Positions 3 through 19,564 of a stretch of 19,766 nucleotides of DNA are shown in pieces. Source of the DNA: Candidatus Hadarchaeota archaeon (lineage in GTDB: Archaea > Hadarchaeota > Hadarchaeia > Hadarchaeales > Hadarchaeaceae). Every line of letters begins with the position of its first letter. Position 1 is the first letter of the stretch. Position numbers and translations under genes: made by a program. The notes under the pieces were generated by a model. That model did no database searches, was not told the DNA's origin, and was given only the letters and a program-made list of their open reading frames with translations. The stretch lies in NCBI GenBank assembly GCA_040755315.1, contig JBFMBF010000021.1:1-19766 (forward strand), in the 5' to 3' direction.

Positions 3-3000
3 GCCCGCTTGGAGAGCTGGTCCGCTGCAGTGAACTCGCCGGCGAGCTGGAAGTTACTTGAGAGCTGGTCCGCTGCAGTGAACTCGCCGGCGAGCTGGAA
101 GTTACTTGAGAGCTGGTCCGCTGCAGTGAATGCTCCGCCTTACGTGGGGTGGGCCCGCTTGGAGAGCTGGAGTGGGGCTTTAACGACCTTTACGCAGTGG
201 TACAGGCTGGAGACCTGGGCTGGAAAAGTGGCGGTGACTGGCCCTGCCCCGACTCTCGTCACTCCAACAAATGGAGCAAAAATTAACGACAACACCCCGC
301 AGCTCAGCTGGGACAACACCTGGATTGCAGACAACTGGGAAATTTGGATAGACAACGATACGAACTTCAGCTCACCAATTATCGAGAACATTCCAACCAA
401 CTCGTACACCCCATCGCTATCCGACGAGAACTACTCTTGGAAGGTCCGCGGTATTAATGATGGTTTCTACTCTAACTTCTCTCAAACATGGACATTCCTC
501 CTTGACACCGTCAAGCCCGGCATCCCGGTCAAATACTCTGTCAAAACCGACAACGGAATTGACGACCCGCCGGAAAACACCATCACGAGCGACACCACGA
601 TAGAATTTGACTGGAGTGATGTCACGGACAGCTCAAACTCCCCAACGGGGGAAAATGCTGGCGCAAGATATTACGAGGTGATTATCGACAACGGCACCTA
701 CACCATCGCTGAAAACATCTCTTGGCCTACATCAATAGTCATCATCGAAGTTCCGCAAGGCGAGTGGACATGGATAGTCCGGGCTTGGGACTGGGCAGGG
801 AACGTGAGTGACAACCAAGCGCCGTGGGGTCTGATAATAGACACGACTGGGCCAGCGCCACCTCCTCTCTCTTACCCTGCAAACGGTGCCATCATCAACA
901 TTGAAAACCAGACTTTCTCCTGGAACGTTCCGCAGGAAAAATATGGAGTGGTCCTCTACGAAATCCAGCTGGACAATGACAACAACTTTGGGTCGCTGCC
1001 ATCCTTCGGCTACTACCAAATTTCTGCCCCAACAACATCCAGACTAATCCGCATTCGTGAGGGCGGTGTCCCGAAGGACGAGAATTATTACTGGAGGGTT
1101 CGCGCTCAGGACAACTCGACCAACTGGAGCGAATGGTCTACCCCATGGACACTACTGTTGGACACCCTGCCCCCATCTGTTCCGCCAAAGTTCTGGCCAG
1201 ACAACAACTATGTGTCCACAACGGCCCAACTTACATTGGAATGGACAACCGTGACCGATAACTCTCTTTCCCCAACCGGAGAAAACGCTGGAGTGGAAAA
1301 CTACCAGGTATGGGTGGACAACGACAACGACTTCAGCTCGCCCGAGAACCTTTCAATAGTCACTCACCCATCAAAAGAATACACGACGACGCTCCACGAC
1401 AACGTCTGGTACTGGCGCGTTAAGGCAATTGATAGGGCTGGGAACGCGAGCGATTACCAAGTCTACTGGAAGTTCACCATTGACAATAACCCGCCTTCAG
1501 CCCCGTCAGCCCTGCTCGCACCTGCAAACGACACAAAAACCAACGAAAACAAGCCGCTGTTCAGATGGAACTGGGTTTTTGACGTGACTGGTGTAACATA
1601 CGAAATCTGGATAGACAACGACAACGACTTTAGCTCACCTTTCCGGGACAACAGGCTGGATAACGTCTGGAACTCCGCGGACAACTACTCCAACGGCCTC
1701 ACCGACGAGAACTACTCTTGGAAGGTCAGAGTGTGGGACGGGACTGGAAAGGTTGGCGCTTTCTCCCAGACATACACCCTCCTCGTTGATACCATGCCAC
1801 CAACTTCTCCGACCTCTTCTCCACAGGATGGACTGATGACCGCTGACAACAAGCCCACGATTTCATGGAGCGCCTCTACCGACAATTCCTACTCTCCAAC
1901 CGGAGAAAACGCGGGAATCTGGCGCTACCAGATCTGGCTCGACAACGACAACGACTTCAGCTCCATAGATTACACTGGGTTCAGCTACGATGATTCTGAT
2001 TTCGACTCCTTTGACGGCGGCACCGGTTACCCAGGCGCTGGGTTCAAGGAAGAGAACTACTCTTACAAGGTGGCCGCCTGGGACTGGGCGGGCAACCGCG
2101 GAGACAACAGCCCGACATGGACATTGGTAGTAGACAAAACCAGGCCATACGCACCGCCGCTCTTGAGTCCAGAAAACAGAGCCACCATAAATCACAACTT
2201 TTCTGGAGTGACACACGACTGGGCAGATGTGGACGACGCATCGGGGATAGACCACTATCAAATTCAAGTGGACAACGACGAGGACTTCTCATCCCCACAG
2301 GACCCAATTCACGATGGATTATTTTCCCCACCACCAAACAACCTCACGCAGTCCTACGTCAGCGTGGAGTACTTTGATGGCTCAAATTCCTATGATGACA
2401 AGTACTACTGGCGCGTGAGGGCCTACGACAGAGCCGAACCAGCCATGCCGGGGGCTTGGTCAGATGTCTGGGAGCTGATTATCGACACCGTGAAGCCGTT
2501 CAAATCGACTCTGCTCCAGCCGGAAAACAACCGCATAACCACAGACAACACCCCGTACTTCACCTGGGAGAACGTCACAGACAACGCCGCGAAGACCTCG
2601 GACGTGAGCGGCTTCAGCTATTTCATCCTGCAGATAGACAACACGCCCGCCTTCACCTCGCCGCGGGTATTCACCAACATCCTGGAGAACTGGTTCACCC
2701 TCCCGACTGACAATTACCTGCAGGTTGGAAACTGGTACTGGAGGGTCAGGGCAGTGGACCGCGCCGGCAACCAGGCTGACTGGGCCGAGAACTTCAGGCT
2801 GAAAGTCAACGACCTCACGCTGTCTGTTGCGCTCTCGGACAACGACGTGAACCCCTCGCAAAGCATCACCATATCTGGCAGGGCCTACTGGCAGCCTGAC
2901 AACGCATCCGTCACAAACAGGACAGTGTTTATCTATGTCGACGACAACCTGATAGACAACGTCATGACAAACGAGAACGGAAACTACACTTACAACTACT

Positions 3001-6000
3001 CCACCGCAATCCTCGGCCTCCACACTGCCAAGGTGATAATCACTGACAACGACAACACCACCGAGGAGAATTCCATCGCCTTCAAGGTCGAGACCCTGAC
3101 GGTCTCCCTCAACCTCGGCGACTATGTGGCCAAACAGGGGCAGAGCTTTACGGCGTCCGGCACCGTCATGAGGCTGCCAGACGGAGTTCCGGAGCAGAAC
3201 GGCACCGTCCAAATTTACATAGACGACAACTGGCAGGTGACCGTAAACACTAACGAGAACGGTTATTACACCACCAACCTGAATGCCCCATCTGCGCTTG
3301 GTCCACACACTGTGAAAGTGCAGGTGTCCAACCCGAACGGCATCACCCAGGAAAACACGAAGAACTTCACCGTGAAAACGATCAGAATAAGCGTTAGCCT
3401 GTCAAAGGCCCAATCCAACCCGCTTGAGCAAATTACCATCTCCGGAATAGCAAAGCTGGACGACGGGAGCACCCTGACGCCAATCGACGGAGAGAATGTC
3501 ATAATCTGGAAAGAGTGGATGGGCGCGGTAGACAAGCAGACTCCAACAATGGCGGACGGCTCTTACTCCACGGTCATCACCGCCCCGGGTGACATCGGAA
3601 CATACATTTACAAGGTCAAAATCACAGACTACCCGGACGACATTTACGGGGAGAACTCGACTACCCTGCAAGTCAAGAGGGCGGACATAACCGCCACCTA
3701 CGCAGACAACATAGTTAACCCCAACCAAAGCAACACCGTTTCAGGCACGGCCACTCTCGTTGGAGAAAGCGAAAACACTCCGATAGAAAACACTGTTGTA
3801 ACCTTCATCTTGGAGAACAGCACCGGCCAAACTGTTGCAAGCGCGGCAGGAAGCACCAACGCCAGCGGCAACTACTCCATAGCGTTCGCGTCCCCGCTGA
3901 AGCTTGACACATACACGGGGACTGTGAGCATATCATACAGCGGCTTCTCCGGCGCCCGCCAAGCCACCCTCTATGTAAAAACCGTCTGGATATCTCTGGG
4001 CTTCACGGACAACATAGTGAAGCTCACCGAGGATTTCACGATATACGGAACGGCTACACTTATGCCGGACAGCACCCCCGTGCAGAGCCGCACAGTCAGC
4101 CTCAGGAAGGACAACAGCACCCTGCTTGACCCATCGCCGGTCACGGACGAGAACGGTTACTACTCGTACCTCTACACATTGGACGCTACAAAGCCGGAGA
4201 ATCACAGCATGGTGGCAAACATCACAGATGTCAATGGGATCACCGGCGAAAACGTCCAATTCTTCGATCAGAGGGAAATTGCGTTCACATGGTTCGGGGT
4301 CTACGACAGCCACTACCAGTTCGACAGCGTCGTGAACCCTGGCGAAAACTTCTTCCCGAGCGTCAGGATAATTGAAAACAACGGGGCCCAGCTTATCCCG
4401 GTCACCGCCACAAAGGCAGAGGACCCGTTCAGGATGCAGATAGGGGTAGGCAACACCTACACCCTCTCGCATGTGTCTAATGGCTACTGGAAGATTGTCA
4501 CCACCACCCCATACACGGCGGCGGGCACCACGGGCACCTACTCCTTCCCGGCCGCAGATGTCCAAGTGACTGGTACCAGCGTCAACGGAATACAGGGGAC
4601 ATCGGCTGACGACACAATAGTATACAATGTCAAGACGCTTAGGCTCACGGTCACCGCCAGCGACTACATCGTCAGCCCAAGCCAGACTGGCGTCTCGGTG
4701 TTGGGGACTTTGACAATCCTGCCGGACGAGAACGCGGACAACGGCCAGACCGTGAAAGTGGAATTTAATGGCGAAAACACGTTCCTGACGACAAACGCCT
4801 CCGGGAACTACTCAACCCCTGTGACCATCCCGATCACAATAGGCTCCTACGAGGTCAGGGCTAGCGTCACCGACTCCCTGGGACTTGAACAGGAAAACAC
4901 CACGACAATCCAAGTGAAGAACATCACACTGTCGCTGCTGGGTTCGACGCCAGTAGCCGAGGAGGGGGTGCCGTTCACCCTCTATGGCCAAGCCAAGCGC
5001 TGGCCCGAGGGTTCCAATGTGCAAAACACCGACGTGAAGGTCTACATTAACGACAACCTCGTGACCACCACCCAGACAGATTTCGGAGGCAACTGGTCTT
5101 ACATCCACACCTTCACGACTCGCGGGATTGTCAATGTAAAAGTTAGCCTGACCGACTCGGACAACATAAGCGTCGAAAACACGATGCAGCTCACCGTCGG
5201 CCGTCCAATCCACATTTATGGTGTTATGAAGAGCCTGGACGGGCTGCCGATAAACGCCACAATGAAGTTCTACGAGCCAGGCACTACTGAGAACCTGTTC
5301 GACATCAAGACGGACGCTTCTGGCAACTACGACAAGTGGGTGTTCGCAGGATACTTCGACTTTGAGGTGATACTTGAGAACTACGGCTTCACGATAAAGT
5401 TCGAGAACCTGAACCTTGACGACCCGAAGAACTACCCGGACGGCGAAAACGTCATCGAGAACATCGTGGAAATTGACGTTCCTCCGACTGCCTTCATGTC
5501 GGTGCCGAACACCAGGACGGTCTTCAAGTCTGTCGCGGTTGATCCACACCAGCTGTTCACAGACAACCATGAAAACCGTAAGGTGACCTTCAACTTCTCG
5601 TCCTACATCACCCAAGTCGGGGATATCTGGTACCTGCGCCTGTACAGAACAAAGCAATACACTTACGAAACAAGGCAGGTCAACGGCTGGGAAACCCTTT
5701 CCTCAAGCCTTGACATCACCCAATACACGTTAACGGCGTGGGACAACATGGCCGGGGCGATGCCAGTCGGATTTGTTATCGCGGAGTTCGACCCGCTCGC
5801 GGAAACCATAACTGCACTTGAAAACACCGTCGGGCAGCTGCAGTCGGCGTCGGAGTCCTTGAACCAGTCCGCGCAGGCGGCAGCGGCATCTGTGGAGAAC
5901 CTCCAAGCCGTCTCCGAGAACTTGAAACAAACGGTGTCAACTCTGGCCACTCAGGAAAACGTGCAGGCGCTCCAGAGCTTGGTGGACAACATGCGCCAGC

Positions 6001-8981
6001 AAGTGGACAACCTGGCCACCCAAGCCAGCATGGAGAACTTGGCAACAAATGAGAACGTGCAATCGCTCCAGCAGCAGCTCAGCTACATCAGCGACAACAT
6101 CTTGGAGCTGTACGTAAGGACAGAAAACACATCACTCCTGGACAACCTGTGGACAAGCTTTGGGAGCATGTCCCAGACTGTGGACAACCTTGCCAAGCAG
6201 GAGAATGTCGAGAACCTGCAGAAAATGCTTTTATATGCCTTCCAGCTGCTCGACAACGTCGCCCCAAGGGAGTTCTTCACAGTAGACCCGCAAAACATTT
6301 CCCTCTCGCTCCGTCAGGGAGAAAGCATCACAATAGACATGAACGTGAACAACGGGGCCTTCGTCGATCTCACCTTCACACCATCGGCAAGCGGGGATGC
6401 TGCAAACTTCCTGAGCTTCAACCCGACATCTCTGTTTGTTGCGTCCTTAACCAGCGGCAAAATAAAAGTTTCAGCGGTAATCCCGGGTTCAGCTGAAGTC
6501 AAAACATACTCCGGATGGGTGACAATAAGAGACACCACAACTGGGAGAGAAAAGGTCATCCCGACGACAATCCAGGTCCTCTCAAAGGAAAAAGGCATGT
6601 TTGACATGACGGTGGTGCCCCGGACCAGCACTTTGATGCCGGGCGGCAAGCTGATTGTCGACGTGCTGTTCAAGAACCTAGGAACGACAGATTCCGATGT
6701 AACTGGAGTCTACGTTTCCATGCTCGGGCCTGGCGGAGAGAATTTCACAGTGTATGAAAACTCCTCATTCATGGTGGCTGCAGGCGAAGTAATAACCAAA
6801 ACATACGAGTTCGAAATTCCGGAAAACGCAAGCCAGGGCAGCTATCTCGTGAGGGTGGACGGCGTTTACCCGCGCGATGGAGCAGAGATAAAGCTCTCCT
6901 CTGCAGACACCGTGGAGATACGGAGGCCGCCAGAAGAACTCAGGGTAGCCGGAATCCCGTTATGGCTGCTGATTGCAATGATAATCGGGTTAACCGTCGC
7001 CGGAATATCTGGCCACTTCGCGCGCAAACAAATGAAGAAGAGGAGCATGAAGAAGAAACGCTTCGAGGCGACCATCTTCGCGGACGAGCTGCCGAAACCC
7101 GGCCCGAACACCATAAAGTTCGGACGCCTGGCCGAGGGCAAGGCGGACGCCTTCCTGGGTCTCAACGACGTCAAGATGCACATGATGACCGCCGGCTCCA
7201 CGGGAGGCGGGAAGACCATATCATCAATGGTCATCGCTGAAGAGGCGCTGATACAGGGCAAAAACGTGATAGTCTTCGACCCGACAGCCCAGTGGACAGG
7301 CTTCCTGAGGAAATGTACCGAACCGAAGATGATGTCCCACTACGCGAAGTTCGGACTCACCGATGCCGACGCCAGGAGCTTCCCGGGCGTCGTGAAGCTC
7401 ATCAAGGACCCGAGGCAGAAGATTGACATGAAGGAACTGCTGAGCGAGGCCACCCGCGGAAAGATCACAGTCTTCGTGATCGAGAGGCTCAAGCCCAGCG
7501 ACATGGACATCTTCGTCACGAACACCGTCCAGTCCATCTTTGCCTCGCAACCCATGGAATACCCAGATCTCAAGACGCTGATAATCTACGACGAGGTCCA
7601 CAGGCTGCTGCCCAAGTTCGGCGGCTCCGGGGCGGGGCAAATACAGCTTGAGCGCTCAGTCAGGGAGTTCCGTAAGTGGGGTATTGGTGTCATGCTGGTC
7701 TCGCAGACCATCGCTGACTTCGGGGAGACAATCAAGACCAACACCCGTACGCAGATCCAGTTCTGGACCCGTGAAGAGGCCGAGCTAGAAAGAATCAAGA
7801 TGAAGTACGGTGAGGAGCACGTCAGGTCCGTCTCGAAGGCCCCGATAGGATTCGGCATGGTCGTCAACCCAGACTACAACCGCGGCAGGCCTTACTACGT
7901 GAACTTCAGGCCCATCCTGCACTCGCCGTTCAGGCTCACGCCGGACGAGCTCGAGAAGTACTACGCTGCCGACGACAGGATAGAGGACATCAAGTTCAAG
8001 CTCAAAAAGCTGGAGGAGAAGGGCGTGGACGTGTTCGACCTCCGCATAGAGCTCGGGCTGGCCCAGCGCAAGCTCGAGGAAGCTTCATTCGACATGGTCA
8101 ACGCATACCTGGACTCGCTGGAGCCGAGGGTCGACGACGTCTGCGCAAGGCACAAGCTCAAGGGTCTCAAGAGGGAGATAGAGCTGGTCCCAGAGGACGA
8201 AATCAAGAGGGCGCAGACGGCCGCGCTCAGGGAGAGGGAGAGGCAGCTCGCCGCGGTACAGAAGACACCCGAGATAGTCGAGGCCTACCGCGACCTGCTC
8301 GGCCCGAAGAAGGAGGTCACCCACGGAGAAGTTGTGAAGCCTCTCAAGGAAGGCGCCAAGGAAGAGGTAAAAACAGAGGCGCCCGCCGGGGAATCATTCC
8401 ACCCCGACTCGGAAGAGGGGAAAGCAGCTGCCAAGGCGGCGGAAGAAAAGGCCAAGGCAGAGGCGAAAAGTGCAAAGAAGAAGACAAAGACGGACGGCGG
8501 CACTCAAATTAGGAGCAGAGTGTTGAGTCAAGTAAAAGCAGGCCGTGCTTCAGGCAAACCTCTCCGAGCTGCCGACAAGAGAAAGACTGCCACAGACGGC
8601 GGCAAATACTTGACCCATGAAGTCGCGGGGCAGGCAAAAGCAAGCCCGGCGCCCAGCAAATCTTTGGCGGAAACTATCAAGAAGTCACTCTCTGAGATGG
8701 GATACACTTACCACGACTCCGAAATGGCGTCTGCTACTGAAAGAAAGAAGGGGAAGACAAAGACGGACGGCGGCAAATTCATGCCTGGCTTGGTTTCAAA
8801 GCAGGGAAAGACAAGCGCGGCCAATGGAAAATCTTTGGCTGAAATGATCAAGCGGTCCCTCTCTGAGATGGGATATACATACAACGACTCCGAAATGGCC
8901 TCTGCACCGGAAAGGAAAAAGGCAAATAAGCTCCAAAAAAGTGTAAAGGGGAGGAAACATGCCAAAAGCAGGGGGAGATGA
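3..8981 (+). CDS. Giant single-pass membrane/surface protein with C-terminal cytoplasmic HerA/FtsK/VirB4-like (DUF87/DUF853-type) P-loop ATPase; 5'-partial
   Basis: The frame is open from nt 3 and no signal peptide is visible, so the true start is probably upstream. Layout: WxxLESW repeats (1-230); about 8 FN3-like modules (YxIxxDNDxxFSSP...YxWxVRAxDxAGN, ~230-2810); Ig/carboxypeptidase-regulatory-like modules (TxxNGxY, ~2810-5780); heptad coiled coil (~5790-6260); two Ig-like domains; TM IPLWLLIAMIIGLTVAGISG followed by RKQMKKRSMKKKR (~6950-7060); Walker A GSTGGGKT (~7194-7217); Walker B LIIYDEVH (~7578-7601); REFRKWG and MLVSQ motifs (~7662-7706). Confidence 0.9.
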   Translation, partial: ARLESWSAAVNSPASWKLLESWSAAVNSPASWKLLESWSAAVNAPPYVGWARLESWSGALTTFTQWYRLETWAGKVAVTGPAPTLVTPTNGAKINDNTPQLSWDNTWIADNWEIWIDNDTNFSSPIIENIPTNSYTPSLSDENYSWKVRGINDGFYSNFSQTWTFLLDTVKPGIPVKYSVKTDNGIDDPPENTITSDTTIEFDWSDVTDSSNSPTGENAGARYYEVIIDNGTYTIAENISWPTSIVIIEVPQGEWTWIVRAWDWAGNVSDNQAPWGLIIDTTGPAPPPLSYPANGAIINIENQTFSWNVPQEKYGVVLYEIQLDNDNNFGSLPSFGYYQISAPTTSRLIRIREGGVPKDENYYWRVRAQDNSTNWSEWSTPWTLLLDTLPPSVPPKFWPDNNYVSTTAQLTLEWTTVTDNSLSPTGENAGVENYQVWVDNDNDFSSPENLSIVTHPSKEYTTTLHDNVWYWRVKAIDRAGNASDYQVYWKFTIDNNPPSAPSALLAPANDTKTNENKPLFRWNWVFDVTGVTYEIWIDNDNDFSSPFRDNRLDNVWNSADNYSNGLTDENYSWKVRVWDGTGKVGAFSQTYTLLVDTMPPTSPTSSPQDGLMTADNKPTISWSASTDNSYSPTGENAGIWRYQIWLDNDNDFSSIDYTGFSYDDSDFDSFDGGTGYPGAGFKEENYSYKVAAWDWAGNRGDNSPTWTLVVDKTRPYAPPLLSPENRATINHNFSGVTHDWADVDDASGIDHYQIQVDNDEDFSSPQDPIHDGLFSPPPNNLTQSYVSVEYFDGSNSYDDKYYWRVRAYDRAEPAMPGAWSDVWELIIDTVKPFKSTLLQPENNRITTDNTPYFTWENVTDNAAKTSDVSGFSYFILQIDNTPAFTSPRVFTNILENWFTLPTDNYLQVGNWYWRVRAVDRAGNQADWAENFRLKVNDLTLSVALSDNDVNPSQSITISGRAYWQPDNASVTNRTVFIYVDDNLIDNVMTNENGNYTYNYSTAILGLHTAKVIITDNDNTTEENSIAFKVETLTVSLNLGDYVAKQGQSFTASGTVMRLPDGVPEQNGTVQIYIDDNWQVTVNTNENGYYTTNLNAPSALGPHTVKVQVSNPNGITQENTKNFTVKTIRISVSLSKAQSNPLEQITISGIAKLDDGSTLTPIDGENVIIWKEWMGAVDKQTPTMADGSYSTVITAPGDIGTYIYKVKITDYPDDIYGENSTTLQVKRADITATYADNIVNPNQSNTVSGTATLVGESENTPIENTVVTFILENSTGQTVASAAGSTNASGNYSIAFASPLKLDTYTGTVSISYSGFSGARQATLYVKTVWISLGFTDNIVKLTEDFTIYGTATLMPDSTPVQSRTVSLRKDNSTLLDPSPVTDENGYYSYLYTLDATKPENHSMVANITDVNGITGENVQFFDQREIAFTWFGVYDSHYQFDSVVNPGENFFPSVRIIENNGAQLIPVTATKAEDPFRMQIGVGNTYTLSHVSNGYWKIVTTTPYTAAGTTGTYSFPAADVQVTGTSVNGIQGTSADDTIVYNVKTLRLTVTASDYIVSPSQTGVSVLGTLTILPDENADNGQTVKVEFNGENTFLTTNASGNYSTPVTIPITIGSYEVRASVTDSLGLEQENTTTIQVKNITLSLLGSTPVAEEGVPFTLYGQAKRWPEGSNVQNTDVKVYINDNLVTTTQTDFGGNWSYIHTFTTRGIVNVKVSLTDSDNISVENTMQLTVGRPIHIYGVMKSLDGLPINATMKFYEPGTTENLFDIKTDASGNYDKWVFAGYFDFEVILENYGFTIKFENLNLDDPKNYPDGENVIENIVEIDVPPTAFMSVPNTRTVFKSVAVDPHQLFTDNHENRKVTFNFSSYITQVGDIWYLRLYRTKQYTYETRQVNGWETLSSSLDITQYTLTAWDNMAGAMPVGFVIAEFDPLAETITALENTVGQLQSASESLNQSAQAAAASVENLQAVSENLKQTVSTLATQENVQALQSLVDNMRQQVDNLATQASMENLATNENVQSLQQQLSYISDNILELYVRTENTSLLDNLWTSFGSMSQTVDNLAKQENVENLQKMLLYAFQLLDNVAPREFFTVDPQNISLSLRQGESITIDMNVNNGAFVDLTFTPSASGDAANFLSFNPTSLFVASLTSGKIKVSAVIPGSAEVKTYSGWVTIRDTTTGREKVIPTTIQVLSKEKGMFDMTVVPRTSTLMPGGKLIVDVLFKNLGTTDSDVTGVYVSMLGPGGENFTVYENSSFMVAAGEVITKTYEFEIPENASQGSYLVRVDGVYPRDGAEIKLSSADTVEIRRPPEELRVAGIPLWLLIAMIIGLTVAGISGHFARKQMKKRSMKKKRFEATIFADELPKPGPNTIKFGRLAEGKADAFLGLNDVKMHMMTAGSTGGGKTISSMVIAEEALIQGKNVIVFDPTAQWTGFLRKCTEPKMMSHYAKFGLTDADARSFPGVVKLIKDPRQKIDMKELLSEATRGKITVFVIERLKPSDMDIFVTNTVQSIFASQPMEYPDLKTLIIYDEVHRLLPKFGGSGAGQIQLERSVREFRKWGIGVMLVSQTIADFGETIKTNTRTQIQFWTREEAELERIKMKYGEEHVRSVSKAPIGFGMVVNPDYNRGRPYYVNFRPILHSPFRLTPDELEKYYAADDRIEDIKFKLKKLEEKGVDVFDLRIELGLAQRKLEEASFDMVNAYLDSLEPRVDDVCARHKLKGLKREIELVPEDEIKRAQTAALRERERQLAAVQKTPEIVEAYRDLLGPKKEVTHGEVVKPLKEGAKEEVKTEAPAGESFHPDSEEGKAAAKAAEEKAKAEAKSAKKKTKTDGGTQIRSRVLSQVKAGRASGKPLRAADKRKTATDGGKYLTHEVAGQAKASPAPSKSLAETIKKSLSEMGYTYHDSEMASATERKKGKTKTDGGKFMPGLVSKQGKTSAANGKSLAEMIKRSLSEMGYTYNDSEMASAPERKKANKLQKSVKGRKHAKSRGR
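12..130 (+). repeat. Perfect in-frame 48-bp tandem repeat (about 2.5 copies) encoding ESWSAAVNSPASWKLL
   Basis: Unit GAGAGCTGGTCCGCTGCAGTGAACTCGCCGGCGAGCTGGAAGTTACTT starts at 12, 60 and 108 (third copy partial). Nt 1-20 also recur exactly at 151-170. Confidence 0.95.
8592..8921 (+). repeat. 171-bp (57-aa) imperfect tandem duplication in the giant protein's C-terminal tail
   Basis: TDGGK at 8592 and 8763. KSLAETIKKSLSEMGYTYHDSEMASATERKK (8658) vs KSLAEMIKRSLSEMGYTYNDSEMASAPERKK (8829). A third TDGG lies at 8490. Confidence 0.9.
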
Positions 8982-9834
8982 AGAATCCGTAAAGGCCGCC
9001 TTGAAGCCGGTCACCACAAAGCTTGAGCAGATGGAGGCCCAGGTGGCCGCCCTGTCAAGCCTCAGGGAGACCTACGACACCAGGTTCACCATGCTCAGCG
9101 AGAAAATCGGAGAGGTCAGGTCCATGATCCTCACGCAGGCCAAGGAGGGCGCCGATGCAAAGGCCAAGGCGGAGAAGGCGCTGATGGCCCTCGAGGGGGT
9201 GAAGCCTGAGGAGTTCAGGTCCGCCATTATCAAGAGGGACGCAGACGTCGAGGCCCTCAAGGTGAAGCTTTCCTCCACTGACGACATGATCAAGAACCTC
9301 ATGGCCGAGATGAGGGACTTCAGGAACGCCCTCGCACAGTTCAAGGGGCTAGAGGCCGTTATCGGGATGTCCGACGAGGCGAGGAAGAACATCATCAGAA
9401 TCCAGCAGCTCAAGGACCAGGTTGAAGTGATGTCTGACAAAGTCATGGCGGCTTTCATGGAGTTCCAGCGCAGGTTCAAGGACGTGACTGACCTTGGGCT
9501 GAAGGTCTCTACCCTTGAGGAGACTGTAAAACCATTGGGAAAGTCAGTAAACCAGATTGATGTGCTGGTGAAGCAGGCGGTCACGAAAGCCGAGATGGCA
9601 AAGCTCACGGGGGACATCGAGAGCCTGAAGAGAGTGGCCGAGGAGATAAAAACATACCACCAGCAGCTCACAGAAAGCGGCGAAGCCACACAGAAGCTGA
9701 AGGTGGAACTTGGTAAAACCTTGAAGCAGGCGGAGATAAGGAACAAGAAAGAGCTGGCCAAGATAAACGCGCAAATCAAGGTTCTGGAGAAGATAACCTC
9801 CAAGCTGCTCAAGTTGATTCTTTCACCCGGGTGA
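8959..9834 (+). CDS. Uncharacterized all-alpha coiled-coil protein (291 aa)
   Basis: Continuous heptad-like K/E/L/A-rich sequence with no TM segment. GGAGG RBS just upstream; overlaps the end of the giant ORF by 23 nt. Confidence 0.85.
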   Translation: MPKAGGDEESVKAALKPVTTKLEQMEAQVAALSSLRETYDTRFTMLSEKIGEVRSMILTQAKEGADAKAKAEKALMALEGVKPEEFRSAIIKRDADVEALKVKLSSTDDMIKNLMAEMRDFRNALAQFKGLEAVIGMSDEARKNIIRIQQLKDQVEVMSDKVMAAFMEFQRRFKDVTDLGLKVSTLEETVKPLGKSVNQIDVLVKQAVTKAEMAKLTGDIESLKRVAEEIKTYHQQLTESGEATQKLKVELGKTLKQAEIRNKKELAKINAQIKVLEKITSKLLKLILSPG

Positions 9835-9836
9835 AG

Positions 9837-9866
9837 TTTAAATACTACTACTAACTACTACTAACT
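9837..9866 (+). promoter_or_regulatory. TATA box plus 10-bp direct repeats (candidate operator) upstream of the zinc-ribbon/MinD genes
   Basis: TTTAAATA at 9837-9844; ACTACTACTA x2 (9844-9853, 9854-9863) plus ACT. The ATG at 9874 is about 30 nt downstream, consistent with a leaderless or short-leader archaeal transcript. Confidence 0.6.
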
Positions 9867-9873
9867 GGTCAGG

Positions 9874-9999
9874 ATGAAGCTTCATTGCAAGAAGTGTGGG
9901 TACAACTGGGAGTACCGAGGCAAGTCAAAATTTTACGCTACATGCCCGAGATGTCTTCGCAAAGTCAAGGTGGCGGAGCCCCCGCAAAGGAGAAAGTGA
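9874..9999 (+). CDS. 41-aa C4 zinc-ribbon microprotein (not in ORF track)
   Basis: Manual translation MKLHCKKCGYNWEYRGKSKFYATCPRCLRKVKVAEPPQRRK*. Two CxxC pairs with a CGYxWxYxG...YxTCPxC pattern typical of small archaeal Zn fingers; fits between the TATA box and the MinD ATG. Confidence 0.85.
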   Translation: MKLHCKKCGYNWEYRGKSKFYATCPRCLRKVKVAEPPQRRK

Positions 10000-10003
10000 G
10001 AGC

Positions 10004-10810
10004 ATGGTGAAGAAGAGAAGCGGACTTATCATAGGGGTCTTTTCAGCAAAGGGGGGGGTGGGCAAGACCACCACCGTCGCCAACATAGGAGCGGCCCTGG
10101 CCCAGAAGCTCAAGGACAAGGTCCTCCTCGCAGAGACCAACATGACGGCTTCAAATCTGGGCCTTCACCTTGGAATACTTGACCCGCCAATAGTCGTGCA
10201 AGATGTGGTGTACGGTCGGGTCAAGGTATCGGACGCCATCATAAAGACTGAATACGGGATACATGTCCTGCCGGGCTCTGTGGCCTTCACCGAGGAAGTC
10301 GGGTCGATAGACCTGAGTGCGATAATCTCTGAACTCAAGAAGAAGTACCAAGTGATAATCTTGGACACCGCCCCTGGCTTTGCCCCCGAGGTCTACGCCG
10401 GAATGAAGGTCTGCGACGAGATACTCGTGTGCTGCCAGCCGCAGGTCCCTGCCATAGCTGGGACGCTGCAGACTTTCAGGGCTGCCGACAAGCTGAAGAT
10501 ACCCACGTTCGGGGTCGTGCTTACGAGGATCACAAAGAAAAGGTACGAGATCTCGCTGTCTGACATCAGAAGGACTCTGGGGTGGCCCACCCTGGTCGAG
10601 GTGCCTGAAGACGACATGGTGCCCGAAAGCATAACCAGAGGGATGCCGGTGGTGCTCTACGCGCCCAACGCTCCAGCCGCAGTAGAATACAGGAAGCTGG
10701 CCCAGATGATCCTTTCACACATCAAGGGGCGCAAGCGAGTGAAGCCGACCCGCAGGAAAACCGTGAAGAGGCGAGCGAAGCCTGTAAAAGCAAAGAGGAG
10801 AAGGAGGTAA
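10004..10810 (+). CDS. minD: MinD/ParA-family (SIMIBI) ATPase
   Basis: Deviant Walker A KGGVGKTT, IILDTAPG switch II and a C-terminal PEDxxV...GxPVVxYxPxxPAA motif of archaeal MinD. Start moved to ATG 10004 (MVKKRSG) after a GGAG motif. Confidence 0.88.
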   Translation: MVKKRSGLIIGVFSAKGGVGKTTTVANIGAALAQKLKDKVLLAETNMTASNLGLHLGILDPPIVVQDVVYGRVKVSDAIIKTEYGIHVLPGSVAFTEEVGSIDLSAIISELKKKYQVIILDTAPGFAPEVYAGMKVCDEILVCCQPQVPAIAGTLQTFRAADKLKIPTFGVVLTRITKKRYEISLSDIRRTLGWPTLVEVPEDDMVPESITRGMPVVLYAPNAPAAVEYRKLAQMILSHIKGRKRVKPTRRKTVKRRAKPVKAKRRRR

Positions 10811-10813
10811 AAC

Positions 10814-11362
10814 ATGGCGCTTGTGCACCTGCCGCCGATGGCCAGGTTCTTCATGCCGATGCCAGAGGATCGCATCAAGAAGAAGGCAAAGTATAATCTT
10901 GGGGAAAAGTACCTGGTGGTGGAGAGCTCGCCGAAGTTATCCGTTGAAATATTCAAGGAAATTACAACCCACGGCGTGCCGGGCATCTGGTTGACAAGCC
11001 ACGACCCGAAAAGCGTGGAGCTTGGGTTTGGCCTTAGCAAGACTGCGATCCTTTCCCTCACCGATAAAAAACTGCCTGGAGAGGCCACCCTGCCGCCCGA
11101 CAGGCTGGACAGGGCTGTGGACATAGTGGCTAACTACCTCAGCAGGACCGGGCTGGCCGTGGCGCTGATAGACAACTTCTCAGACCTAGCGCGGGTGAAT
11201 GGAATCTCCAAGGTCCTTGACTTCATAAAAAAGATGGAAGACACCTGCGCAAAGAACGACTACGCTCTGATAGTGGTGCTTGACCCCGCTGCATTTGCGG
11301 AAGCCCAGGTCAATGTTCTCATTGAAGGATTCAGGGACTGGCGGATTTTCAAACAGGTGTAA
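10814..11362 (+). CDS. DUF835-like (degenerate RecA/KaiC-fold) protein
   Basis: YLVVESSPKLSVEIF..GIWLTSHDP..AILSLT..VALIDNFSDLARVNG..FIKKMED..LIVVLDPAAF matches the DUF835 pattern from memory; no Walker A. GGAGGT RBS upstream. Confidence 0.7.
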   Translation: MALVHLPPMARFFMPMPEDRIKKKAKYNLGEKYLVVESSPKLSVEIFKEITTHGVPGIWLTSHDPKSVELGFGLSKTAILSLTDKKLPGEATLPPDRLDRAVDIVANYLSRTGLAVALIDNFSDLARVNGISKVLDFIKKMEDTCAKNDYALIVVLDPAAFAEAQVNVLIEGFRDWRIFKQV

Positions 11363-11615
11363 CGGGCCGTTTCGCGACTTCGATGTGCCCGAGTTCTTTG
11401 CCTGTTTCCAGCAGGGCCCAGGCCCATATCAGGCACTCGAAGCTCTTCACAATGTCGTTTTTCTCGAAGAAATGCCGCGAGTCCTTTCCGTACGCCCTTA
11501 TGTTGGTCAACAGCTTATCGCCTCGCGCGTCCGCTGGCTTTGCCCCAGGAAGCGCGGAATCTAACTTTGCCGTCCACTTTTTTATCTCACCTTTGAGTTC
11601 ATCTTCCAATTTCAT
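11349..11615 (-). CDS. DUF357 family protein
   Basis: NIRAYGKDSRHFFEKNDIVKSFECLIWAWALLETG is DUF357-like; this family commonly lies next to dph5. Start taken at MKLEDEL, overlapping the dph5 end. Confidence 0.8.
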   Translation of the reverse strand: MKLEDELKGEIKKWTAKLDSALPGAKPADARGDKLLTNIRAYGKDSRHFFEKNDIVKSFECLIWAWALLETGKELGHIEVAKRPVTPV

Positions 11616-12390
11616 CGAGCGCCTCCTTCGGTGCCCCAGCGAATGCTTTGAGGGCTTCTGCCTCCATGAAGTGGAGTCTGCCCGGGACAATTAGGACATA
11701 GGGTGGGGGGCCAAAATCTCGTCCGACTAGGTTCCCCGCGAGGTCGGCGGCCACCAGGCAGTCGTCCTCTCCAGCCCTGGCCACCACGACCACCAGCCGT
11801 CTCTCCGTGAAGGTTTTTTCATTTTTCACCTTCTCAAGATTCAACATGACTTTGATGGCCTCCCCCGCGGTCATCGCTCGGCCCTCCTCGGCGCGGATGT
11901 CCAGCAGCAGCAGCGTGTGGAGCCCACGGGCAAGGTTTTCCACAAGGATTTCGTATGGCCTCGCGGAAGGGTTGTCCTGGAACGGCACAGTCGCGGATGG
12001 GCCGAACTTGTAGCTCTGGAGGCCAGCCAGCCCCGGGGCGGCGGATGCTATCGATGCCGCGTGAATCACCTTTGTACCGATGCCGGCCTTAGCGGCGCGG
12101 AGGCGGAGGTCCACGTGTGTTGTGGCCACCATCGGCTCCCCCGGCACGAGAAACACCAATTTCCCACGCCTTGCAGCGTCTAAAATTTCATCCGGATTTT
12201 CTTCGACCACCTTCCTGCTCACCACCTTTATCGACCTTCCGACCTCCCGCTCCAGCGCGGCTGCATCAATCCCCGGAATCAAGCTTGTGTAGAGCTCGGC
12301 GTAGACTGCATCCGCTTCCCGCGCCTCCCGCAGCCCTTGAAGGGGAATCCCGCCGACGCCCAGACCTATTCCGACAAAGACCAACATCAT
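11599..12390 (-). CDS. dph5: Diphthine synthase
   Basis: LVFVGIGL, ADAVYAELYTS, GEPMVATTHVDLRLRA, GLQSYKFG, GLHTLLLLDI, FGPPPYVLIVPGRLHFMEAEAL. Confidence 0.96.
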   Translation of the reverse strand: MMLVFVGIGLGVGGIPLQGLREAREADAVYAELYTSLIPGIDAAALEREVGRSIKVVSRKVVEENPDEILDAARRGKLVFLVPGEPMVATTHVDLRLRAAKAGIGTKVIHAASIASAAPGLAGLQSYKFGPSATVPFQDNPSARPYEILVENLARGLHTLLLLDIRAEEGRAMTAGEAIKVMLNLEKVKNEKTFTERRLVVVVARAGEDDCLVAADLAGNLVGRDFGPPPYVLIVPGRLHFMEAEALKAFAGAPKEALDEIGR

Positions 12391-12396
12391 TGCTTC

Positions 12397-12404
12397 TTAT
12401 AAAT
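12397..12404 (+). promoter_or_regulatory. TATA box of tRNA-Lys
   Basis: TTATAAAT about 20-26 nt upstream of the GGGCCC leader and tRNA start. Confidence 0.55.
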
Positions 12405-12429
12405 CGTCACATAAGGGGTTAATGGGCCC

Positions 12430-12551
12430 GGGCCCGTGAATGGGTTAAAACCCCATCGGGAAGCTCAGTCTGGTTAGAGCGGCCGGCTCTTAACAGCCCA
12501 GCTGGGAGCCAAACCGGCAGATCGAGGGTTCGAATCCCTCCGGGCCCGCCA
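12430..12551 (+). tRNA. tRNA-Lys(CTT) with two introns (9/10: 12439-12462; 37/38: 12493-12512)
   Basis: Spliced product GGGCCCG-TG-GCTC-AGTCTGGTTA-GAGC-G-GCCGG-CTCTTAA-CCGGC-AGATC-GAGGG-TTCGAAT-CCCTC-CGGGCCC-G-CCA is a complete cloverleaf with encoded CCA. Confidence 0.9.
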
Positions 12552-12725: not shown

Positions 12726-13607
12726 TCATTTCCTCCTGCGGATTTCTGCAAATACATCTGGCAGCTTGGCAATTAAATCCGACGCCAGGAACTCGTAGCC
12801 CTTCTCCTTGAGGCAGAGGTCACCTGCCCTGCCGTTGATCCAAGCGCCGGCTGCGGCTGCCTTGAAAGGATTGGCCCCTTGGGACAGGAATGCCCCGACG
12901 ATTCCCGCCAGCACGTCACCAGTACCGCCAACTGTCATCCCAGGGTTGCCCGTGGAGTTCAGCTTCGCCTCCCCGGACGCCGACGCTATTATGTCTATTT
13001 GTCCCTTCAACAGAATAACGCAACCGAGCTCCCGCGCAGCAGATTTTGCTGCCTTGATGCGATTCTGAAGGTCGGACGACAATTTTGAGCCTGTCAATGT
13101 TTTGAACTCTCCAGGGTGAGGGGTCAGCACCCACGGCATCCCTTCCGTAAGCCCGCGCCCAGCTGCCAGGGCCGTCAGCCCATCGGCGTCGAAAAGTGCC
13201 GGAAGTTTGGGGTGTTTTTTCTTCATTGCCGCTGCCATGCCCAACACGGCTTTTCGGGTCTTCTCAAGGACGCCAAGTCCAGGCCCGACCACGACCGCCG
13301 TCGACCGCTCAAGCTCCTTCACCAGCCCTGAGACCTCCCGCGGGCCCAAGTCCCCACACGGAAGCTTAATCGTTATCAAGTCGGGGGAAATGGAGTTGAT
13401 GGCCCAAGCGACTTTCTCGGGCGCTGCAATCGTCGCGAGGTCGACGCCTGACCTGAGGGCCGCCAGCCCCACCAGAGTCGGCGCCCCAACATAGCGGGAG
13501 CTCCCTCCGACCACCAGAAGTCTACCGTGGTCGCCCTTGTGAGAATCCAGCCTCCGCTTGGGCAGCACCTCGAAAGCATCCCGCCTGCCCACATAACTTG
13601 CAGCCAT
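12726..13607 (-). CDS. nnrD: ADP/ATP-dependent NAD(P)H-hydrate dehydratase (YjeF C-terminal domain only)
   Basis: [53 protein letters not shown]. Confidence 0.93.
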
Positions 13608-18611: not shown

Positions 18612-18716
18612 TGGTGGGCCCGGAGGGATTCGAACCCTCGATCCCCACCATGTCAAGGTGGTGTTTGTTAGGGAAAAAGCGGTCTTTTTCCCTCATAACC
18701 GCTAGACCACGGGCCC
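18612..18716 (-). tRNA. tRNA-Val(GAC) with 29-nt intron at 23/24 (18665-18693)
   Basis: Spliced: GGGCCCG-TG-GTCT-AGCGGTTA-TG|AC-A-CCACC-TTGACAT-GGTGG-GGATC-GAGGG-TTCGAAT-CCCTC-CGGGCCC-A-CCA. BHB: GUUA/UAAC helix, UGA and AAA bulges, 9-bp intron stem. Confidence 0.93.
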
Positions 18717-19465: not shown

Positions 19466-19564
19466 TGGTGGACCGGGCGGGATTTGAACCCGCGACCTCC
19501 CGCATGCCAAGCGGGCATTCAATCTGGTGAGTTTTCTCTCATTGCCAGGCTGAACTACCGGCCC
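19466..19564 (-). tRNA. tRNA-Ala(GGC) with 21-nt D-loop intron at ~20a/21 (19522-19542)
   Basis: Spliced: GGGCCGG-TA-GTTC-AGCCTGGCA|T-GAAT-G-CCCGC-TTGGCAT-GCGGG-AGGTC-GCGGG-TTCAAAT-CCCGC-CCGGTCC-A-CCA. G3:U70 Ala identity pair. BHB: CUGG/CCAG helix, CAA and AUU bulges. Confidence 0.93.

Follow-up and report, generated by a model that had tools for sequence, protein, structure and literature searches.

An intron-bearing tRNA-Lys(CUU) gene with a duplicated acceptor strand

The window analysed here, a 19,766-nucleotide stretch of a Candidatus Hadarchaeota archaeon contig, contains a Hadarchaeota-type tRNA-Lys(CUU) gene (12430-12551, forward strand) interrupted by BHB introns at positions 9/10 and 37/38 (Table 1). 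Removal of both introns leaves a 78-nt cloverleaf with the anticodon CUU that matches the intron-less orthologues. The Rfam model RF00005 matched the gene partially (12460-12541, 35.7 bits), and default ARAGORN detected none of the three tRNA genes in the window. The divergent dph5 gene adjoins 17 of the 24 orthologous tRNA-Lys loci tested and marks synteny. The genome (86.6% complete) encodes RNase P RNA and one single-unit endA of 178 aa that aligns end to end with PDB 1a79.

Table 1. Features at the tRNA-Lys(CUU) locus (window coordinates).
Feature	Position	Strand	Basis
Diphthine synthase gene dph5, divergent	11599..12390	-	TIGR00522, E 3.5e-76
TATA-like element, probable promoter of the tRNA gene (function inferred)	12397..12404	+	best TATA-matrix match
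Copy of the acceptor 5′ strand in the leader (putative decoy)	12424..12430	+	sequence; kept together with the intron in relatives; predicted pairing with 12541-12547
Exon 1 (positions 1-9)	12430..12438	+	same nine bases directly 5′ of the D-stem in intron-less orthologues
24-nt BHB intron at 9/10	12439..12462	+	geometry read from the sequence
Exon 2 (positions 10-37), anticodon CUU at 12489-12491	12463..12492	+	Rfam RF00005 alignment
20-nt intron at 37/38, relaxed motif with 5-nt 3′ loop	12493..12512	+	20-nt insert in Rfam alignment; structure evaluated
Exon 3: T-arm, acceptor 3′ strand 12541-12547, G73, encoded CCA	12513..12551	+	sequence, Rfam

The 9/10 intron has a central helix of 4 bp, in which 12433-12436 on the exon side pair with 12457-12460, two 3-nt bulges (12437-12439 and 12461-12463) and a 5-bp helix h′ (12440-12444 with 12452-12456) whose sequence differs among relatives while its pairing is preserved. 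The same geometry was found in the 17 phylum and 72 Bathyarchaeia matches to the intron pattern described below. In intron-less orthologues next to the same dph5 gene, G9 immediately precedes the D-stem, so that the intron could be placed at 9/10; an 8/9 boundary was ruled out by the bulge geometry together with this G9. The 37/38 intron is missing from some tRNA-Lys orthologues. The locus is one colinear gene, which rules out a split or permuted tRNA.

Directly upstream of the tRNA, GGGCCC (12424-12429) abuts the GGGCCCG of the acceptor 5′ strand (12430-12436), and a second GGGCCCG is thereby generated at 12424-12430, just as the original prediction had read it. The copy and the tRNA share G12430, which is tRNA base 1, and the predicted target of the copy is the CGGGCCC at tRNA positions 66-72. 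Over the 2.42 million positions of the genome this 7-mer is found 200 times, giving a chance of about 7e-4 over the nine possible start positions. Leader and intron are covered jointly by contigs of related organisms from two other studies, and an intron-less contig among those relatives (X2, a loose end at 12463) is without the leader copy. Target-site duplication was ruled out, both copies lying upstream of the intron rather than flanking the insert.

The leader copy and the intron occur together in Hadarchaeota

Two independent patterns, one for the intron and one for the leader, were run over 66 genomes of the phylum. The intron pattern recovered 17 Lys(CUU) and Met(CAU) genes, and the leader copy is present in all 17, in one of them as a wobble variant. 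With the leader pattern there were 19 matches, of which 16 fell on those 17 genes, one on a further Met gene carrying a 9/10 intron, and two on sites other than tRNA genes. The same result was obtained for tRNA-Asn(GUU), which has another acceptor sequence and an 8/9 intron. Here, among 28 loci examined of 70 matches listed (30 retrieved), a full, wobble or partial copy was present at 17/17 intron-bearing loci and at 0/11 intron-less loci.

All distinct phylum tRNA genes that our script could parse from loci and genome were then pooled. The leader was predicted to pair with its own 3′ strand in 37/37 genes with an 8/9 or 9/10 intron (Lys, Met, Asn) versus 2/101 genes without one, as scored by the last 15 leader bases against positions 66-76 at −12 kcal/mol or better, a threshold that, like the looser one below, was set after the data were seen, and among related genes that are not independent. 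The looser measure (30 bases against 61-76 at −14 kcal/mol) gave 37/37 versus 11/101. The expectation that orthologues with the 9/10 intron keep the duplicated leader while intron-less ones lack it was thus borne out.

Genera g7, g8, g10 and g11 contain both states, and there the decoy changes in step with the intron. A dph5 tree was built from 16 loci (of 24 tested, 17 gave a match, and one was too short); on it, the intron label needs four changes, at least three of them forced by well-supported branches, and the decoy follows the same label. The tRNA-Lys of G031, which has A10, is intron-less. Variant decoys maintain pairing through wobble, and in three families the copy is intact or wobble-compatible while flanks, spacers and intron helices diverge.

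The two exceptions in the pooled set are the Glu(CUC) genes of G000 and G002, in which the copy is present without a 5′ intron. These genes (G000:C11 about 3385-3392 and G002:C10; L194, L195) carry an 8-nt leader copy, and partial copies precede the tRNA-Glu(CUC) genes of G017 and G023. The copy without an intron could be either a relic or a pre-adaptation; no Glu gene with a 5′ intron of that pattern was found in the 66 phylum genomes.

Leader pairing recurs in other registers beyond the phylum

Matches to the intron pattern were found in 70 of 301 Bathyarchaeia genomes (72 matches). Compared with controls comprising 30 loci of 315 intron-less matches plus neighbouring genes, the leaders pair with 61-76 at −14 kcal/mol or better in 76/78 genes with the intron versus 6/41 without, and by the narrower measure in 58/78 versus 1/41; five genes with D-loop introns, first classed as 9/10, are counted among those without. 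The decoy registers differ: there are exact copies, wobble variants, complements of 69-76, and complements of 61-72 further upstream. The leaders that complement 69-76 or 61-72 do not repeat exon 1, and some leaders cover 73-76. A third acceptor sequence occurs in seven incidentally found 8/9 genes, which carry their own copy. Typed by acceptor sequence, leaders of the three types pair best with their own partner (cognate medians −11.5, −16.0 and −15.4, versus −5.5 to −9.3 for non-cognate pairs).

The Thermofilaceae genes fit (3/3), and one Nitrosothermus gene is weak; a single Altiarchaeota gene and two of the Bathyarchaeia genes depart from the pattern. Introns without a clear decoy are those of L095, L149 and L090, and the decoy of L084 is weak. 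The genome-wide scan gave at least 119 loci, of which 86 failed the tRNA filter. In the metagenome scan, 33 loci included 26 distinct ones with full flanks; 23 of the 26 fit, and L378, L379 and L391 have introns without a clear decoy.

The leader is predicted to relieve competition between the BHB motif and the acceptor stem

The 9/10 BHB motif uses tRNA bases 4-7 and therefore competes with the acceptor stem. Partition-function folding at 37 °C gave the central helix a probability of 0.79 with the leader and of 0.00 either without it or with an A6 leader, as had been predicted for precursors folded with and without the leader. At 70 °C the probability with the leader was 0.39. Moving the 5′ end to 12425, so that the first leader base is lost, reduced it to 0.01, which abolishes the predicted effect.

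Conformer energies, computed at 37 °C with the other arms fixed, give −48.7 kcal/mol for the native acceptor form without the BHB, and −34.7 and −42.8 kcal/mol for BHB forms with the 3′ strand free or partly paired; forming the motif without the decoy is therefore 6-14 kcal/mol uphill. The decoy with the strict motif reaches −48.8 kcal/mol, and the decoy with the relaxed HBh′ motif and the D-arm reaches −55.8 kcal/mol, 7 kcal/mol below the strict form. The original prediction had the leader free the whole of 12430-12436. The decoy does free the strand in these models, but a 7-nt decoy includes G1, so that full decoy pairing and release of all seven bases do not hold at once: a 7-bp decoy frees bases 2-7 (relaxed HBh′ motif), and a 6-bp decoy frees bases 1-7 (strict motif). 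Helix h on the exon side, in which bases 1-3 can pair with 11-13, has a predicted probability of about 0.002; since it is almost never predicted, the splice substrate is probably the relaxed form. A self-hairpin of the leader was rejected, being 9 kcal/mol worse than either acceptor register.

The direction of the effect is general. At 37 °C the leader raises the helix probability in 37/37 phylum and 77/78 Bathyarchaeia precursors, and the real leader beats shuffled leaders in 33/37 and 63/78, respectively. A probability of at least 0.5 at 37 °C is reached by only 22/37 phylum and 36/78 Bathyarchaeia precursors, and among the 8/9 genes by only 8/18 and 0/7.

After splicing, the native register (−37.0 kcal/mol) and the decoy register (−37.7 kcal/mol) are about iso-energetic, and unconstrained folding favours the decoy register. 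In these models, the proposed post-splicing shift of register is not driven by secondary structure.

A trailer strand accompanies introns on the 3′ side

For introns on the 3′ side, the decoy model predicts a complementary strand in the trailer. This converse arrangement was found in tRNA-Asp(GUC) genes with a 68/69 BHB intron, whose trailer is complementary to the 5′ strand of the acceptor or T-stem. At −14 kcal/mol or better this holds for 14/15 intron-bearing versus 2/28 intron-less genes, two unparseable loci being left out, and both intron-less exceptions have a tandem tRNA directly downstream. At −10 kcal/mol the contrast is 14/15 versus 13/28. The trailer raised the helix probability in only 7/15 precursors (medians 0.22 and 0.20); there is thus no consistent folding gain, and the Asp case extends the pattern rather than providing energetic proof of it. 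Introns inside the acceptor 3′ strand with complementary trailer strands were noted at L406-L437 (tRNA-Asp, 68/69) and L196 (the tRNA-Glu of G023, 70/71).

The TATA-like element lies further upstream in intron-bearing genes

The TATA element proposed at 12397 was recognized as the TATA-like sequence TTATAAAT. With a TATA matrix trained on 100 intron-less phylum tRNA genes, matches in intron-less genes peak 31-32 nt upstream of +1. The best match in 9/10 genes lies a median of 37 nt before +1 and 29 nt before the decoy, and in 8/9 genes 40.5 nt before +1 and 30 nt before the decoy, indicating that the promoter has moved upstream by about the length of the decoy. In the window gene, where the start site is ambiguous, the element is 33 nt before +1 and 27 nt before the decoy. 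On this spacing, transcription from a position at or just before 12424 is plausible rather than secured, and a start inside the decoy would also be compatible. A sigma-70 promoter scan gave no match; the sigma-70 model does not apply to archaea.

A proposed disposable strand for introns that compete with the acceptor stem

The leader copy is a real and conserved feature, and it goes closely with introns whose motif is in competition with the acceptor stem. From the comparative and folding evidence, we consider it likely that the copy is a selected, cis-acting decoy strand that enables the 9/10 BHB to form. According to this model, the BHB could form only with bases 4-7 paired to the intron, in a competition that the 7-bp acceptor stem would normally win. 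A transcribed leader would occupy 66-72 instead of the real 5′ strand, allowing the central helix to form and the splicing endonuclease to cut, probably on the relaxed HBh′ form, with EndA cutting only the decoy-bound form. After ligation, the strands might slip between the two equal registers until the native one is locked in by tertiary contacts involving U8 and by RNase P, whose cut at G1 is irreversible. Splicing would thereby be forced ahead of 5′ trimming for these tRNAs. In M. kandleri, end-trimming normally precedes intron removal (PMC3695527), so that decoy-bearing tRNAs would need the reverse order.

The same observations could be read as a brake on end-processing, in which leader pairing has been selected to keep RNase P, tRNase Z or a synthetase off the unspliced precursor while EndA opens the acceptor stem itself. 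In favour of this reading, 73-76 are covered by many of the leaders in Bathyarchaeia, bacterial RNase P is inhibited by leader:RCCA pairing (PMC9433436), tRNA ends in M. kandleri are normally trimmed before splicing (PMC3695527), and a few introns have no decoy. However, introns elsewhere in the same tRNAs lack a decoy (many are in the class without an 8/9 or 9/10 intron), the decoy of the window leaves 73-76 free and rebuilds an acceptor-like stem, and a motif formed without the decoy carries the uphill cost given above; we regard a brake as unlikely. Less probable still is that the copy is a functionless neutral scar of intron arrival or slippage. The distance from promoter to decoy is approximately that of +1 in intron-less orthologues, as if exon 1 and the intron had been inserted behind an old 5′ strand, and the Glu genes have the copy without the intron. 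Against this, pairing has been kept in the three families despite the divergence around it, the copy, unlike a target-site duplication, is not placed on both sides of the intron, and neither the leaders in other registers nor the trailer strands can derive from exon 1.

That the upstream copy is the true 5′ strand, the second copy leaving with the intron, would agree with the equal stability of both registers after splicing. Yet U8 and base 9 come only after the second copy, the stretch behind the first copy varies in both sequence and length, and the 6-11-nt piece would be too short for a BHB motif, which by its established geometry cannot fit there; this reading is very improbable. Assembly artefact or chance is the least credible account of all: the locus is a GC-rich palindromic repeat in a draft genome, and no read set of the exact organism was found, but the same arrangement recurs in many independent genomes. 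Being conserved in relatives and present on the contigs from two other studies, the leader copy is not an assembly slip.

Taking the leader copy as a decoy strand, we tentatively propose a wider archaeal design rule, to which we give slightly less than even weight. A BHB intron that borrows an acceptor or T-stem strand would be accompanied by a disposable complementary strand, in the leader for 5′-side introns and in the trailer for 3′-side introns, acting as a built-in strand-displacement chaperone. Such strands would have evolved repeatedly in different registers, and would reverse the trim-then-splice order. Since the copy is tolerated without the intron while the reverse is rare, the decoy may be the step that admits introns to these positions. 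Archaeal tRNA leaders are treated as disposable. If the model is true, tRNA maturation would have a new layer, in which a conserved strand of the leader toggles the precursor between a fold competent for splicing and the mature one. Such a strand would account for introns located beside the acceptor stem and suggest a testable route of intron gain, the central open problem according to a 2026 preprint (bioRxiv 10.64898/2026.10.13.758758). For annotation, it is relevant that default ARAGORN overlooked all three tRNA genes of the window.

Relation to known tRNA introns and leaders

Non-canonical and multiple BHB introns are known in archaeal tRNA genes (PMC4090602, PMC8450103, PMC5829648, bioRxiv 10.64898/2026.10.13.758758; Marck and Grosjean 2003 and Sugahara 2007/2008 as cited there). 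Hadesarchaea are described as rich in disrupted tRNA genes, and a loop in their alpha4 enzyme has been linked with tRNA disruption (Kaneta et al., PMC5829648). The window gene shares with known archaeal BHB introns the central helix of 4 bp, the bulges of 3 nt and the intron helix, as well as the co-occurrence of two introns and an EndA encoded in the genome. Unlike those described in the text available, it has a motif in conflict with the acceptor stem, a conflict that a spare strand in the flank would resolve. The intron positions in PMC4090602, a list marked there as incomplete, include 3/4 and not 8/9 or 9/10.

Neighbouring tRNA introns can be removed in order, one having to leave before the next BHB can form (PMC8450103). 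In both cases a conformational prerequisite would set the processing order, although here it would be a leader strand rather than the earlier excision of another intron. As in split and permuted tRNAs (PMC3218864, PMC4033280, PMC4090602), flanking pairing would yield a splice-competent precursor; there, leader and trailer lie within the BHB motif, whereas in the colinear window gene the leader would pair with an exon strand outside it. Leaders that slow RNase P through extended stems with the 3′-RCCA (PMC9433436) likewise pair with the tRNA 3′ end. Those leaders extend the stem, whereas the window leader is not of the leader:NCCA type: it is predicted to pair with 66-72 and displace the native strand, replacing the 5′ strand of the stem.

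No description of a decoy strand was found in the available text of the literature on archaeal tRNA introns and processing (including PMC11291895, PMC3239211 and the Asgard preprint), a scope outside which the primary intron-position surveys lie, so that absence from print is not established. The supplement text of Kaneta 2018 likewise contained no match; introns at 8/9 or 9/10 may be listed in its figures or in the supplements to the Asgard preprint. The window feature amounts to an ordinary BHB intron accompanied by a flanking helper strand that is apparently undescribed.

Other features of the window and genome

Two further tRNA genes with D-region introns lie in the window at 18612-18716 and 19466-19564 (both reverse strand), assigned by eye to Val(GAC) and Ala(GGC); they are undetected by default ARAGORN and mislabelled with its intron option. 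Many tRNA genes of G000 have a short G/U-rich stretch just 5′ of +1 with the potential to pair with the NCCA end. In tRNA-Asn(GUU) (G000:C5 about 3050-3115; L203-L232), the 37/38 intron has a phylum-conserved core that contains a C-box-like motif and, directly behind it, eight bases that complement the T-arm of the same gene; it resembles an intron-encoded methylation guide. At G000:C13 about 6300-6470, a tRNA-like 3′ part with the anticodon GCU and without a 5′ acceptor strand lies downstream of a GC-rich element, and the same element precedes a short-armed GCU tRNA at G000:C17 about 13170-13350.

The window also contains an ORF of 2990 aa (9-8981, forward strand) that has repeats at its N-terminus, Ig-like stretches, one coiled coil, one hydrophobic segment and, near the C-terminus, a weak match to CedD/VirB4-like ATPases. 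It is followed at 8959-11362 by coiled-coil, MinD-like and FlaH-like genes, and the contig encodes ftsZ and spt5 in addition to dph5.
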